DNA from: Candidatus Aenigmatarchaeota archaeon
GTDB taxonomy: Archaea; Aenigmatarchaeota; Aenigmatarchaeia; Aenigmatarchaeales; JACQIB01
Assembly: GCA_046760225.1 (NCBI GenBank)
Contig: JBHIDR010000020.1
Location: 1-14,168, forward strand
DNA: 14,168 bases
Reading direction: 5' to 3'
This document shows positions 6,001-9,000 of this stretch, in pieces (positions within the stretch are counted from its first letter, which is position 1; every line of letters starts with the position of its first letter). The position numbers are program-made.

Positions 6001-9000
6001 TTTATATCATACTAAACTCAATAGTAAATTTAGGAGAACCATGAATATAAAAAATAAGGTGTTTTACAGGGAGATAATTCATCCAAATATCTTGCAGGAA
6101 TTTTTGAAGCTAGAGAAGCCAATAATGGTCTTTGAGACAGAAATCAATAATGTCGATAAGAGTGCTTTCGCAACCTTTCTGGCCAAGCAGAGAAAGGAGG
6201 CAAAGATTGAAATAGGTAGCATTGTGCTTTTCAGGGCAAAGAAGAACAAAAAGACTTTTGAGTTCACTTCCAAATTGGGAAATTGGGGGAAATTCCATAT
6301 TCCAAAGGAACTTGTTGAAACATTGAGAATCAAAAACCATGAAAGAATTGTTTTTGAGACTATCGCAAAGAACTCCAAACCGATTCCGAGGGCGCAACCT
6401 ATAGATTTAGCCGATATTACAAGTATGGATAGCAGACTAAAAATTATATTACGCCCAAAAGGGTTTGTAACCATATGGAAAAAAGCGCATACACCTATAA
6501 CCGTGCCTAGATTCCTAGAACCTTCAGAGGATTTATTTGTTTTTGCTTACTTAATGCATGGAGATGGGCATTATAAAAGTAAATTTTTCTTCTCTAATGC
6601 TAGTTATAGATTGCATAGATTCGTTATGGAAAAGTTCGAAGAGATATTTACTCTCCCTAAAAATATGTGGAGGTGCAGGGTTTCCCATCATAAAGAGGAT
6701 CCAGCTGTTAAAATTTACTGGAAGAAGGCACTTGGTTTTAGCGAAGAGCAATTCTACCCAAAAATATCAAGGACACGCTTCGGAATGTTAAAGCGTGGTA
6801 ATGCAAGAACAACAATTGATTATAAACTCGTTGCTACTGTCTTCCGATTTGTCTTTGGCAAACTGAATGACATGATTGATGAAGGCAATGCTTTGCATGC
6901 GCTCGATGGCATACTAAATGCAGAGGGTAGTGCTGGCATATACAAGAATGGCCTTCACAAGTTAACTATATCCTTTAGTCAATCTGAGAAGGATATGTTT
7001 GCAAAAATATTGAGAAAGTGTGGATTTCTAGGGTTATGTAATTGTTTGAATGATAGGTTTGTAATGGGAGACTGGAATAATTTCTATCAGCTCATAAGGA
7101 AATTTCATGAGAACAGGCTTGTGCCCTTTAGTCAAAATCCTGTGAGAAGCGCAAATGTCGTTAATGGTCTCTTAAATCATAGATATACTAAAACTATTAC
7201 AAAATACTTGAAAGCTATAGATGATGATGGACGTACATTTGCCGAAATAGCCAAAGGATTGGGTCATAAAAGGGCGTCTGTTGCCAAGGAACTGAGAAAC
7301 AAGAGATTTGATGATTTTATTAAAATAGAAGGTAGAGGCATAAACAGAAGCCCTTTAAGAGTTTCTATCTCTAAAGAGGGTCTGGGATTTTTAGAAGTTA
7401 TTAAGTGGTTGGAGCAACAACGTCCAATCATAAATAAACTATTAATTGAAGATGAACAACTTGAAAGGAGGTGGATAAGCTGAATAAAAGGAAATGGTTG
7501 ATAAGATCTCATGAAGTTTCGCTGCCTGAATACGGAAAATATCCTGGGGCAAGGACAGACGAGGAGATGCTCAAGAACGGCATAATAATTCTTGACAAGC
7601 CACCAGGACCAACATCACATCAGGTGGATGTCTGGATAAAGGAGATTATTGACGTGCACAAATGCTCACATGGTGGGACCTTAGATTTTAGCAGGTTGAT
7701 ATAACACTGTTATATAAAGGAAATCCCCGTGTGAGTGGAGTTTTAATACTTGCTTTGGAAAACGCCACAAAGCTCATGCCTATTCTTCTTTCCAGCAGAA
7801 AGGAATATGTGGCCCTGATAAACCTCCACAGGGAGGTGGAAGAAGGCAAGATTAAGAAGGTGCTGCAGAAGTTCAGGGGAAAGATAAAGCAGCTTCCACC
7901 AAAAAAGGCTGCTGTTGCGCGGCGTGTGCGCGAAAGGGAGATTTATTATCTTGAGGTTCTTGAGATTGACAAAAGAAACATTCTTATAAAGGTTGGTTGT
8001 GAGGCAGGCACATACATAAGAAGGCTGGCTGATGATGTTGGTAAGGAGCTTGGTATTGGCGCACACCTGCAGGAGCTGAGAAGGACCAAGAGCGGCACAT
8101 TTACAGAGGAGCAAACAGTGAAAATGCAGGATGTTGTTGATGCTGTGGCTGAAGACAGGATAAGGGATATTGTGCTTCCAATGGAGAGTATAGTTGAAGA
8201 TATAAGGAGTGTTGTGATAAAAGACAGTGCTGTTGATGCAATATGCAACGGCGCTCCACTGAGTTCAGGCGGAATATCAAGACTGGAGGAAGGAATAGTG
8301 AGAGGTGAGTGGGTAGGCATCCTTACGCTCAAGGGAGAACTGGTTGCAATTGGCAAAGCTACCATGAACAGCAAGGACATGAAAAGAAAGAAGGGAATAG
8401 CAGTAAAAACAGACAGGGTGCTTATGAAGAAGGGAACCTATCCTAAGATGTGGTAAGTTTCTCTATTATCTTGTCTGCTACTTGTTCTGCTGTAAGGTTT
8501 GATGTGTCAATAACCATGTCTGCTTCTTTTTCAAGGTCAGAAGGTGTAAAACCATAAATCCTTTTGAAATTCTTTCTTTCTAGTTCCTCTTTTTCCTTTA
8601 GTTGTCTGAGCGCTGTTTCATAGTCTATTCCTTCTTCTCTTTGCGTTATTCTCTTTGCTCTTACTTCTATTGCTGCCTTTAGCCATACCTTTAGGTCAGC
8701 TTTCTTTACAAACCTGATTGAGAGCTTTCCATCTATCACTATGTTGCCCTTGTCTGCAAGCTCTTGCTGTTTCCTGTCTATTTCCTCATGGAATGACTTG
8801 CTTGAGCCCTTTTCTGTTCTCCAGACATCCACTGCTGCTTTTGTCTCCTTTCCTGCTCCATGGGACTTGAAGAATTTTCCAGGTGAGAAATAACCGATGC
8901 CCAATTTTTCAGAAACAAGCCTTGACACTGTGCTTGTGCCGCATCCTGGCTGGCCGGATATCACTATAACTGGCATAGTTATAAATAACTATTTACAAAT

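Follow-up and report, generated by a model that had tools for sequence, protein, structure and literature searches.

The cbf5 gene of a Candidatus Aenigmatarchaeota archaeon (genome G000) is very probably interrupted by a 38-nt BHB intron at positions 7685..7722, predicted to be spliced from the pre-mRNA by EndA and RtcB; this splicing model draws on sequence, structure and comparative data. The gene lies in a window of 14,168 nucleotides, the whole stretch of DNA that was analysed. Its neighbour, ORF499, is a free-standing gene whose 499-aa product is predicted to adopt a LAGLIDADG homing-endonuclease fold, and the evidence tilts towards a model in which the intron spreads by 'collaborative homing' with this putative endonuclease. 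A BHB intron combined with such a homing layer is probably the best explanation of the locus as a whole.

The gene appears as two + strand ORFs, 7471..7704 (77 aa) and 7731..8456 (241 aa), that lie in different frames. The first matches the Pfam family DKCLD (E 9.3e-12), and the second matches TruB_N from profile position 17 on, together with TruB_C_2 and PUA. Excision of 7685-7722 by script joins G|AT and yields a 315-aa Cbf5 in one frame, restoring ..SHGGTLDPRVSGVL..; the frame joined by this calculated excision reads ..CSHGGTLDPRVSGVLILAL.. across its 315 aa. Exon 1 (7471..7684, +) contains DKCLD, ends on base 1 of the catalytic Asp codon and corresponds to residues 1-72 in a tblastn search with the joined protein. 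The intron (7685..7722, +) enters the Asp codon after its first letter (G|AT, 7684|7685) and shifts the frame, the exon-1 frame ending at a stop at 7702-7704. Exon 2 (7723..8456, +) provides the rest of TruB_N, TruB_C_2, PUA and the stop codon, as read from Pfam matches. The GTLDP motif is back once the 38 nt are taken out. An earlier note on this DNA had placed a 38-nt BHB intron inside the catalytic-Asp motif at 7685-7722 and claimed that the junction restores the motif in frame. All of this is borne out: the two ORFs, the exact junction and the fold agree with it, cuts placed by rule between the second and third bulge nucleotides fall at the same positions, and GAT and GTLDP are recovered in a protein of 315 aa.

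Close relatives carry an uninterrupted gene. Exon 1 is 75% and exon 2 71% identical to the continuous cbf5 of the same-genus genome G001, and in 6/6 other family genomes cbf5 is a single open frame of 317-352 aa; the intron's absence from the family, claimed earlier for five genomes, thus holds for six. A split-gene search comparing the ORFs of G001 (23 contigs, 566 kb) with the studied genome returned 21 candidate split pairs, among which cbf5 was the only clean protein split, the remainder being shadow frames, an rRNA region, a tRNA-like region or tandem genes. An apparent insert of 176 extra nt at 4580-4730 is merely two adjacent genes. Scanning the whole genome by motif only, for BHB-bounded inserts whose removal reopens a frame, yielded 15,131 candidates, of which 4,851 passed a coding filter; they showed no excess of short lengths, and the scan was too noisy to use.

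The RNA around the insert folds into the structure expected of such an intron. Positions 7665-7742 (78 nt) fold at -27.0 kcal/mol with a z of -4.02, a value as good being reached by 0/200 shuffles, and a longer stretch of 101 nt has a z of -3.04 (3/200 shuffles as good); the earlier note gave a z of -4.2. In the predicted central helix, CCUU of exon 1 (7679..7682, +) pairs with AAGG of the intron (7717..7720, +) at probabilities of 0.84-0.99, a pairing reflected in compensatory changes across genomes. The 5' bulge AG|A (7683..7685, +) would be cut after 7684, according to the fold and the cut rule of Yokobori 2009, and the 3' bulge AA|A (7721..7723, +) after 7722, according to the fold. An outer exon-exon helix, specific to intron-bearing alleles, pairs the exon-1 strand (7665..7678, +) with the exon-2 strand (7724..7735, +). 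The 4-bp central helix claimed in the earlier note is confirmed, and a strict BHB, in which each strand has one clean 3-nt bulge, can be formed; its place as the minimum-energy fold is lost, since at -24.9 it lies +2.1 kcal/mol above the minimum. The minimum itself is a relaxed variant, with a 2-nt 5' bulge and the 3' AAA opposite one unpaired A. The exon helix had been described as 4 bp, a 1-nt bulge and 10 bp; that of the strict form was computed as 4 bp, a 2-nt bulge and 8 bp.

The same position of cbf5 is interrupted in other genomes. A DNA pattern search around the site, in which the class and phylum sets were the same 371 genomes, found matches in 17/371, and the reversed pattern found 0. 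Genuine same-site inserts number 16/371 (this genome and 15 others), spread over 11 genera and 7 families and ranging from 12 to 38 nt; a Cbf5 match is present in 319/371. The seventeenth pattern match, in G096, was set aside: the 26 nt that separate the two pattern halves contain no stop and keep the frame, and just 2/4 central pairs form. Another order of the class gave no pattern match, and Cbf5 there is shorter and more divergent, with uninformative frame lengths. Same-site inserts also occur at 8 MAG loci from Woesearchaeota/Nanoarchaeota. All four central pairs form in 15/16 phylum introns and in 8/8 from Woesearchaeota/Nanoarchaeota, and GAA|ATCC at the 3' end is unchanged in 16/16 phylum introns; introns from different families have little in common beyond these functional ends. 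In the protein database, ORFs from a Desulfurococcales MAG comprise exon 1 only and end in ..GTLE.

Both the RNA structure and the protein are constrained. In the alignment of the 16 phylum introns, the central helix is paired in 98.4% of cells, and two of its four pairs changed on both sides (CG<->UA in 4 sequences, UA<->CG in 5). Over the whole structure 87.9% of cells are paired, compared with 33-46% when the structure is slid, and 0/500 shuffles reach its covariation score. The 16 intron-bearing alleles have on average 6.5 contiguous bp in the exon-exon helix, and 33 intronless ones have 0.8; the Gly codon is GGG in 13/16 of the former and 3/33 of the latter. Joined frames are open in 16/16 cases, giving 288-334 aa in 14, the other two extending past the end of their locus. 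Among six species, each with a 12-nt insert containing an in-frame stop, dN/dS is 0.07-0.17 at dS up to 1.0. On these sequence comparisons, the interrupted cbf5 genes appear to stay functional, under purifying selection.

The genome encodes both a splicing endonuclease and an RNA ligase. Two EndA genes (PF01974) lie on contig C2. One paralogue is closest to the alpha subunit of N. equitans (3IEY_A, E 4e-35), keeps Tyr and His, and has an insert common with N. equitans alpha and absent in M. jannaschii; the other has lost the catalytic His. Both have Ala in place of the catalytic Lys of M. jannaschii, as read from the alignments. RtcB is encoded on contig C35, and the ligase gene is itself interrupted by two further predicted BHB introns. 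Three points speak against splicing: the relaxed minimum-energy fold, the Ala in both EndA paralogues, and the interruption of rtcB, whose product the ligation step requires. The statement that cbf5 is the only interrupted protein gene does not survive this finding. A search of 30 rtcB loci and the rest of G000 turned up nothing resembling ORF499, which leaves the rtcB introns without a visible endonuclease partner. Aragorn predicts 21 tRNAs in the genome, 13 of them with an intron.

Upstream of cbf5, a 2.4-kb insert (5108..7470, +) separates it from an L14e-like gene. The insert is absent in G001, and its GC content is 0.38 compared with 0.46 in the flanks. It contains a 141-aa ORF (5390..5815, +), which has no Pfam match and no second copy in G000 or the fetched loci, and it holds most of ORF499 (5984..7483, +), whose frame is open from 5819 and whose last 13 nt, with the stop, overlap the beginning of cbf5. 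ORF499 matched no Pfam family at E <= 0.001, hence no curated LAGLIDADG model, and no PDB chain by sequence at E <= 1. Five distant relatives retrieved with an ORF499 profile pass LAGLIDADG_3 at 23.0-28.1 bits (cut-off 22.5). ORFs bearing LAGLIDADG_3 adjoin genes for TFB, an EF-Tu-like GTPase and aminoacyl-tRNA synthetases. Two LAGLIDADG-like motifs, ..FLIHGDGHY.. and ..LNGLLNAEGS.., can be placed by eye. Across 13/13 family sequences, residues H192-Y197, A306, G309, L311 and A313-G315 (HGDGHY and A..G.L.AEG) are invariant, as are the acidic residues at motif position 8, D194 and E314. In an AF2 model (pLDDT 87.7, pTM 0.85), residues ~178-400 superpose on PI-PfuI with Z 12.8 and rmsd 2.9 over 170 aligned residues; other matches are I-AniI (Z 11.0), I-DmoI (10.8), I-Tsp061I (10.6), the bI3 maturase (Z 11.1) and WhiA (Z 11.3). 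The protein has further domains: its N-terminal fold resembles PHS018 (Z 13.8), and its C-terminal region has MarR-like matches. By its motifs and modelled fold, ORF499 is predicted to be a double LAGLIDADG homing endonuclease in architecture.

The arrangement of this insert bears on the age of the intron, which the earlier note had called a separate, recent gain. A recent arrival in the lineage is likely, because the 2.4-kb insert with its homing-endonuclease-like gene adjoins cbf5 and is missing from G001. A separate, unrelated gain is not supported: the site is also occupied in 16/371 genomes of the phylum and at 8 MAG loci, and site and phase are those described for the crenarchaeal intron.

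Where relatives of ORF499 occur, the intron usually accompanies them. Relatives of ORF499 among genome contigs occupy 11 loci, 9 of them informative; cbf5 adjoins the relative in 9/9, and 8/9 of those cbf5 genes carry the same-site insert. The exception is MAG L143, in which an ORF499 relative stands beside an intronless cbf5. In the order to which one such MAG belongs, the insert pattern was seen in 1/141 genomes, namely the ORF499 holder. Comparing 8/9 with 0/140 sampled relatives gives a Fisher p of 1.8e-12, with the reservations that the genomes are not independent and that the Woesearchaeota base rate rests on a DNA pattern that divergent genes can escape. Two database homologues of ORF499 are read-through fusions ending ..GTLE and ..GTLVM. 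G097 has, immediately before an intron-bearing cbf5, a remnant of ORF499 with an internal deletion; no ORF499 remnant was found at 33 intronless loci. Against homing, ORF499 is absent within 1.5 kb at 14/16 intron-bearing phylum loci; the intronless cbf5 of L143 and the missing Pfam LAGLIDADG match of ORF499 weigh the same way, as does the presence of LAGLIDADG folds in maturases and the regulator WhiA. Nor is a co-conversion tract visible, exon 1 of G000 being no more foreign than exon 2 when compared with G001 (75% / 71%), and the genes neighbouring cbf5 in the window have no tblastn match in the Woesearchaeota loci. The locus presents a free-standing putative endonuclease gene, optional among relatives, beside a conserved gene with an ORF-less intron.

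These data can be assembled into the following model. In the transcript, exon CCUU (7679-82) would pair with intron AAGG (7717-20), the helix being closed by the exon-exon helix. A splicing endonuclease encoded by a pair of paralogues, of which one is catalytic and the other lacks the catalytic His, would cut after 7684 and after 7722, and RtcB would ligate the exons, so that the catalytic Asp regains its GAT codon. The intron would not have arisen locally on its own; it would be half of a mobile pair with the neighbouring ORF499 (5984-7483). ORF499 would cleave intronless cbf5 at the conserved site encoding GTLDP, and the intron, by disrupting this target, would protect the allele that carries it. 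Repair off the carrier would then copy the endonuclease gene together with the intron ~200 nt downstream. Later, ORF499 would decay and disappear sooner than the intron.

An unlikely alternative to homing, close to the view of the earlier note, is that introns arose de novo and independently at a predisposed site, with ORF499 a bystander: GGG-ACN-YUN-GAU-CCN can form a hairpin (GGGA...UCCC), and a short insertion complementary to its loop would create a BHB. The flanking sequence is indeed constrained by the protein motif, introns of separate families are alike at little more than their functional ends, and 14/16 intron-bearing loci have no ORF499. The predisposition is nevertheless weak, as intronless alleles have a mean exon helix of 0.8 bp and GGGA in 3/33. 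Against this account also stand the adjacency of ORF499 to cbf5 in 9/9 loci, 8/9 of them with the intron against a background of 0/140, and the decayed remnant at G097.

Homing by ORF499 would likewise be mistaken if the gene were a domesticated LAGLIDADG protein, either a maturase-like helper in splicing the cbf5 intron or, in the manner of WhiA, a regulator of the gene, a proposal to which we give roughly one chance in a handful. The bI3 maturase and WhiA are among its fold matches, the PHS018-like and MarR-like domains resemble DNA/RNA-binding ones, and the gene overlaps the cbf5 start. A selfish element fits ORF499 better than a host factor does, because both motif acidic residues are invariant (13/13) and the gene sits in a lineage-specific low-GC insert, is patchily distributed and has a decayed copy.

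Inheritance from a common DPANN-TACK ancestor with many losses is improbable to a greater degree. Site and phase are identical in Crenarchaeota and two DPANN groups, and loss is documented in Desulfurococcales in the available text of Yokobori 2009 (PMC2738675). Carriers make up only 16/371 phylum genomes and 1/141 in the Woesearchaeota order, however, so very many losses would be required. A relative ~90% identical over 66 exon-1 residues has a continuous gene (P0004 and P0031 fall in one 90% cluster), a sign of rapid turnover. A pseudogene, an assembly error or two separately translated polypeptides, which the two ORFs in different frames might suggest, can be dismissed almost entirely: the insert edges are exactly the BHB cut sites, interruptions at this site recur across 24 genomes or MAGs (16 + 8), the interrupted genes are under apparent purifying selection, and the break falls within the active-site motif GTLD|P, where halves of a TruB-family enzyme, once parted, could not build the catalytic site.

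The favoured model, a BHB intron that homes with ORF499, has consequences beyond this locus. The range of the cbf5 intron is widened to small-genome archaea at the same base, and a second interrupted gene is added, that of the RNA ligase itself. The 12-nt inserts with stops, in genes under purifying selection, will lead gene callers to flag broken genes. The adjacent homing-endonuclease-like gene suggests a route of spread, and with it comes the first mechanism open to testing for the movement of such introns and for their position within catalytic motifs. Whether BHB mini-introns of archaeal protein genes are in general mobile, riding with free-standing LAGLIDADG endonucleases aimed at the most conserved catalytic codons, is evenly balanced. 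If they are, this would account for the interruption of the same cbf5 base in Crenarchaeota and two DPANN phyla and for that of rtcB at two active-site motifs, and archaeal mRNA introns would home in a cycle comparable to the one known from group I introns and inteins. A search of open full-text literature returned no paper joining cbf5, intron and DPANN and nothing on rtcB introns, which is not proof of absence in either case; in the texts searched, crenarchaeal cbf5 counts as the sole example of a BHB intron in coding sequence.

A comparison with the crenarchaeal cbf5 intron shows close correspondence. That intron, known from distantly related heat-loving archaea, splits the catalytic Asp codon after its first letter, measures 16-44 bp, and has a BHB-like motif cleaved between bulge nucleotides 2 and 3, as described in the part of Yokobori 2009 (PMC2738675) available to us. 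Gene, codon, phase, cut rule, short length (38 here) and patchiness are common to both. A hetero-oligomeric (alpha-beta) EndA in the host belongs to the crenarchaeal description; the genome studied here encodes two EndA paralogues, one with Tyr and His and one without His. The host here has a DPANN-type small genome and does not belong to Desulfurococcales or Sulfolobales, inserts of its relatives go down to 12-15 nt, and a LAGLIDADG gene stands beside cbf5.

Other BHB substrates share parts of this arrangement. Haloferax HVO_1309 mRNA has a BHB intron in its 5' UTR, and the accessible text of Schwarz 2020 (PMC7714728) names crenarchaeal cbf5 as the only other reported mRNA case; in both HVO_1309 and the present gene an mRNA is the predicted or reported endonuclease substrate, with the intron in the UTR there and in coding sequence here. 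Relaxed BHB/BHL tRNA introns are cut by (alpha-beta)2 or epsilon2 EndA, according to the part of Kaneta 2018 (PMC5829648) at hand. The relaxed motif, the two EndA genes and the many seemingly interrupted tRNAs are alike, whereas the substrate here is an mRNA. Archaeal rRNA introns, such as those of I-DmoI and I-Tsp061I, which Yokobori 2009 also discusses, combine BHB splicing with a LAGLIDADG endonuclease as mobility factor. Their endonuclease ORF lies inside the intron, whereas ORF499 lies outside the 38-nt intron, ~200 nt upstream, and has extra N- and C-terminal domains.

The closest parallel for the proposed mobility is F-CphI, a free-standing endonuclease encoded next to the intron-containing psbA of cyanophage S-PM2 and described in terms of collaborative homing in the available text of PMC6083498. 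In both systems a free-standing gene with the part of endonuclease, known there and putative here, is optional among relatives and stands beside a conserved gene whose intron lacks an ORF and sits at a highly conserved site. S-PM2 is a phage with a self-splicing group I intron and an Endo VII type enzyme, whereas here a protein-spliced BHB intron would be served by a LAGLIDADG fold on an archaeal chromosome. For F-CphI, both the cutting and the protection have been demonstrated; for ORF499 they are inferred. In the available text of Yokobori 2009 (PMC2738675), the origin of cbf5 introns is called unclear, they are considered perhaps deletion derivatives of ORF-bearing introns, and an endonuclease-linked intron is called for. 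The arrangement of ORF499 and cbf5 offers an alternative route to this deletion-derivative idea, and the pair is a concrete candidate for the endonuclease-linked intron sought by Yokobori et al.

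In G000, the genome that holds the window, cbf5 is carried by two + strand ORFs whose frames differ. The 5' ORF (7471..7704, 77 aa) matches Pfam DKCLD, the opening domain of Cbf5 (E 9.3e-12), and the 3' ORF (7731..8456, 241 aa) matches TruB_N from profile position 17 on, followed by TruB_C_2 and PUA. When 7685-7722 is cut out by script, a single frame of 315 aa results; it carries ..SHGGTLDPRVSGVL.., the TruB-family motif. The borders in the DNA are ..GGG ACC TTA G|ATTTT..AAGGAA|AT CCC CGT... The 78 nt round this 38-nt insert fold at −27.0 kcal/mol (z −4.02), which none of 200 shuffles matches, and a 101-nt stretch reaches z −3.04. 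A central helix pairs exon CCUU (7679-82, +) with intron AAGG (7717-20, +) at probabilities of 0.84-0.99. Next to it come the bulges AG|A and AA|A, and an exon-exon helix closes the motif. The rule that cuts fall between bulge residues 2 and 3, as given by Yokobori et al. 2009 (PMC2738675), places them exactly at 7684|7685 and 7722|7723. The phase is likewise that published there for Crenarchaeota, after the first letter of the catalytic Asp codon. The earlier note had described a bulge-helix-bulge (BHB) insert in cbf5; its ORFs, fold, cut sites and junction stand, while its account of the helices needs small corrections. The minimum-energy structure is the relaxed form, the strict two-bulge form being 2.1 kcal/mol less stable.

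That close relatives have a continuous cbf5, as the earlier note held, is borne out by each of the family's six other members (frames of 317-352 aa). Aligning the joined protein to the loci of 29 relatives reveals inserts with stops at the same residue in two more genomes of the order, and a screen of open-frame length across the class uncovers others. A DNA pattern requiring both cbf5 exon motifs at a spacing of 8-60 nt matches 17 of 371 genomes, the same 371 making up class and phylum, and its reversed control matches none; a Cbf5 match is present in 319. One of the 17, G096, has a continuous frame and was excluded. The remaining 16 come from 7 families and 11 genera; their inserts measure 38, 30, 19, 15, 14, 13 or 12 nt. 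A database search for short exon-1-like proteins returns 15, the query included: four relatives end just past GTL, two are pieces of continuous genes, and eight, of which one comes from a MAG with the label Desulfurococcales, are ORFs with another N-terminus that end a few residues beyond ..GTLE.

Several lines of evidence argue that these inserts are spliced and are no sign of gene decay. The central helix is complete (4/4 pairs) in 15 of the 16 introns, and 98.4% of its cells are paired in their alignment. Two of its four pairs show double-sided switches, from CG to UA in four sequences and from UA to CG in five; these are not independent events since the aligned introns are related. Across the whole structure 87.9% of cells are paired, against 33-46% after a shift of the alignment by 1-3 columns, and the covariation score exceeds that of every shuffle. 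The exon-exon helix is limited to intron-bearing alleles (mean 6.5 contiguous bp, n=16, versus 0.8 in 33 intronless alleles), as largely is the Gly codon GGG at the site (13/16 versus 3/33). All 16 joined frames are open. In one genus, six species share an insert of 12 nt that holds a stop in frame, and these genes diverge by a dS of up to 1.0 at a dN/dS of 0.07-0.17; such strong purifying selection on an interrupted gene suggests that the full protein is needed and hence that the insert must be removed. The cbf5 insert is very probably a BHB intron removed by the splicing endonuclease EndA and the ligase RtcB.

Leaving aside G072, whose 13-nt insert shifts the frame, most mini-introns, in the phylum and in the Woesearchaeota and Nanoarchaeota sets, place a stop in the exon-1 frame 2-7 codons past the 5' cut; Woesearchaeota introns mostly start A-GUAA, and those of family f15 contain ..UUGA... 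Such early stops may restrict translation of unspliced mRNA.

G000 encodes two EndA paralogues, both on contig C2 (L048:1297-1785 and L048:2332-2859) and separated by a 189-aa ORF. The 176-aa protein is nearest to N. equitans alpha, the catalytic subunit (3IEY_A, E 4e-35), keeps Tyr and His, and has an insert common to that subunit and absent in M. jannaschii; the 163-aa protein has lost the catalytic His. In HMMER alignments both have Ala, immediately preceded by Arg, at what would be the catalytic Lys position of M. jannaschii. The pair is compatible, judging from sequence, with an alpha-beta enzyme; enzymes of this kind are reported to act on relaxed motifs (Kaneta 2018, PMC5829648). An aragorn search that allowed for introns found only 21 tRNA genes in this 83% complete genome; for 13 of them it predicts introns, often at non-canonical positions.

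cbf5 is not alone among the protein genes of G000 in being interrupted: rtcB, the gene of the ligase needed for BHB splicing, bears two predicted BHB introns of its own (contig C35, + strand, loci L049/L091, ~1544-1573 and ~1646-1677). The first, of 30 nt, is in frame, has no stop and lies within HEGY|GFPIGGV; the second, of 32 nt, shifts the frame within GGIG-Y-DINCG. In both, the central helix has 4 bp, the 3' bulge is AAA and a hairpin lies within the intron, and joining gives an RtcB of about 481-485 aa. The inserts are sporadic in relatives, site 1 being occupied in G023, G016 and G005 and site 2 in G008; G001, a genome of the same genus, has neither. The rtcB frames of G003 and G004 are 977-1010 aa long, probably owing to an intein directly before NCG. 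Elsewhere in G000, contig C1 at ~43.1-46.5 kb holds spurious ORFs 69-94% identical to G001 and looks like an rRNA region; the 41 nt and 86 nt by which it exceeds G001 could represent introns of the rRNA or expansion segments.

Gene order in the window is that usual in archaea, L15-SecY-adk-DUF106-L14e ... cbf5; cmk comes immediately downstream on the opposite strand, then S13-S4-S11-RpoD. In G001 the cbf5 frame opens with the very codon that follows the stop of the L14e-like gene; in G000 2,363 nt separate the two, an insert with a GC of 0.38 versus 0.46 in its flanks. It contains a 141-aa ORF (5390-5815, +), which has no Pfam match and no second copy in G000 or any locus examined, and ORF499 (5984-7483, +), with a stop that overlaps the start of cbf5. 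By sequence, ORF499 matches nothing in Pfam or PDB. Its 12 database homologues keep HGDGHY and A..G.L.AEG invariant, which are read as two LAGLIDADG motifs with their acidic residues kept. An AlphaFold model built from the homologue alignment is confident (pLDDT 87.7, pTM 0.85), and residues ~178-400 resemble the LAGLIDADG endonucleases PI-PfuI (Z 12.8), I-AniI (11.0), I-DmoI (10.8) and I-Tsp061I (10.6). At the N-terminus is a domain similar to PHS018 (Z 13.8), and Foldseek returns MarR-like matches for the C-terminus.

A scan of species-representative genomes locates ORF499 relatives at 11 loci; the titles of the MAGs concerned read Woesearchaeota, Nanoarchaeota or 'archaeon'. cbf5 adjoins the relative in 9/9 informative loci, directly downstream in eight and divergent in one, and eight of these cbf5 genes are interrupted at the same base, by inserts of 15-31 nt. 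The central helix is complete (4/4 pairs) in each of these eight introns, and CACU:AGUG adds a new compensated variant. The ninth locus, L143, is the only one with a continuous cbf5; a reverse-transcriptase (RVT_1) fragment just upstream of its ORF499 homologue (L143:1178-1705) recalls the idea of RT-mediated intron loss put forward in Yokobori et al. 2009. In an even sample of 141 genomes from the order of one such MAG, the insert pattern occurs once, in the ORF499 holder; the contrast of 8/9 with 0/140 (Fisher p 1.8e-12) is indicative only, since the genomes share ancestry and divergent genes may escape the pattern. Two homologues run on into Cbf5 exon 1, stopping at ..GTLE and ..GTLVM, and several Woesearchaeota loci (L140:2998-4566 and L141:3010-4581; proteins P0022 and P0027) join the homologue and exon 1 in one open frame. 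This may be real fusion or read-through, and a fusion protein after splicing is possible.

Within the window's phylum, close ORF499 is confined to G000, and no ORF499 match occurs at 33 intronless cbf5 loci. What looks like an internally deleted remnant lies in G097, whose cbf5 has an intron of 14 nt: the ORF of 162 aa immediately 5' of this gene matches the first-motif and C-terminal regions of the family. Distant relatives of 340-475 aa occur in 18 genomes of the phylum (loci L150-L169), beside TFB (six loci), an EF-Tu-like GTPase (three), Trp/Tyr-tRNA synthetase (two), ProRS and fibrillarin/Nop5; five pass Pfam LAGLIDADG_3. At L157:2728-3582 an RVT_1 ORF adjoins a LAGLIDADG-like gene.

Collaborative homing with a free-standing endonuclease is the favoured origin of the cbf5 intron, at somewhat better than even chances. 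The putative homing endonuclease, so read from sequence and model, would cleave cbf5 alleles that lack the intron, at the conserved site coding for GTLDP; carriers would be shielded by their intron, and repair would co-transfer the endonuclease gene and the intron, the former decaying later. Such homing would account for the same site in distant lineages, the patchy occurrence, close alleles with and without the intron, and recent arrival in G000. Against it, the endonuclease gene is missing at most intron-bearing loci, L143 combines an ORF499 homologue with intronless cbf5, and no co-conversion tract is visible between the cbf5 genes of G000 and G001. LAGLIDADG folds, moreover, also act as maturases and regulators.

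The non-subscription open literature yields nothing on a cbf5 intron in DPANN or on rtcB introns, and treats the crenarchaeal cbf5 intron as the only BHB intron in a coding sequence (Schwarz 2020, PMC7714728). The intron type and its site are known; what is new is the host range and a testable, putative endonuclease partner. Collaborative homing has a known precedent in F-CphI, a free-standing endonuclease that accompanies a phage group I intron (PMC6083498).
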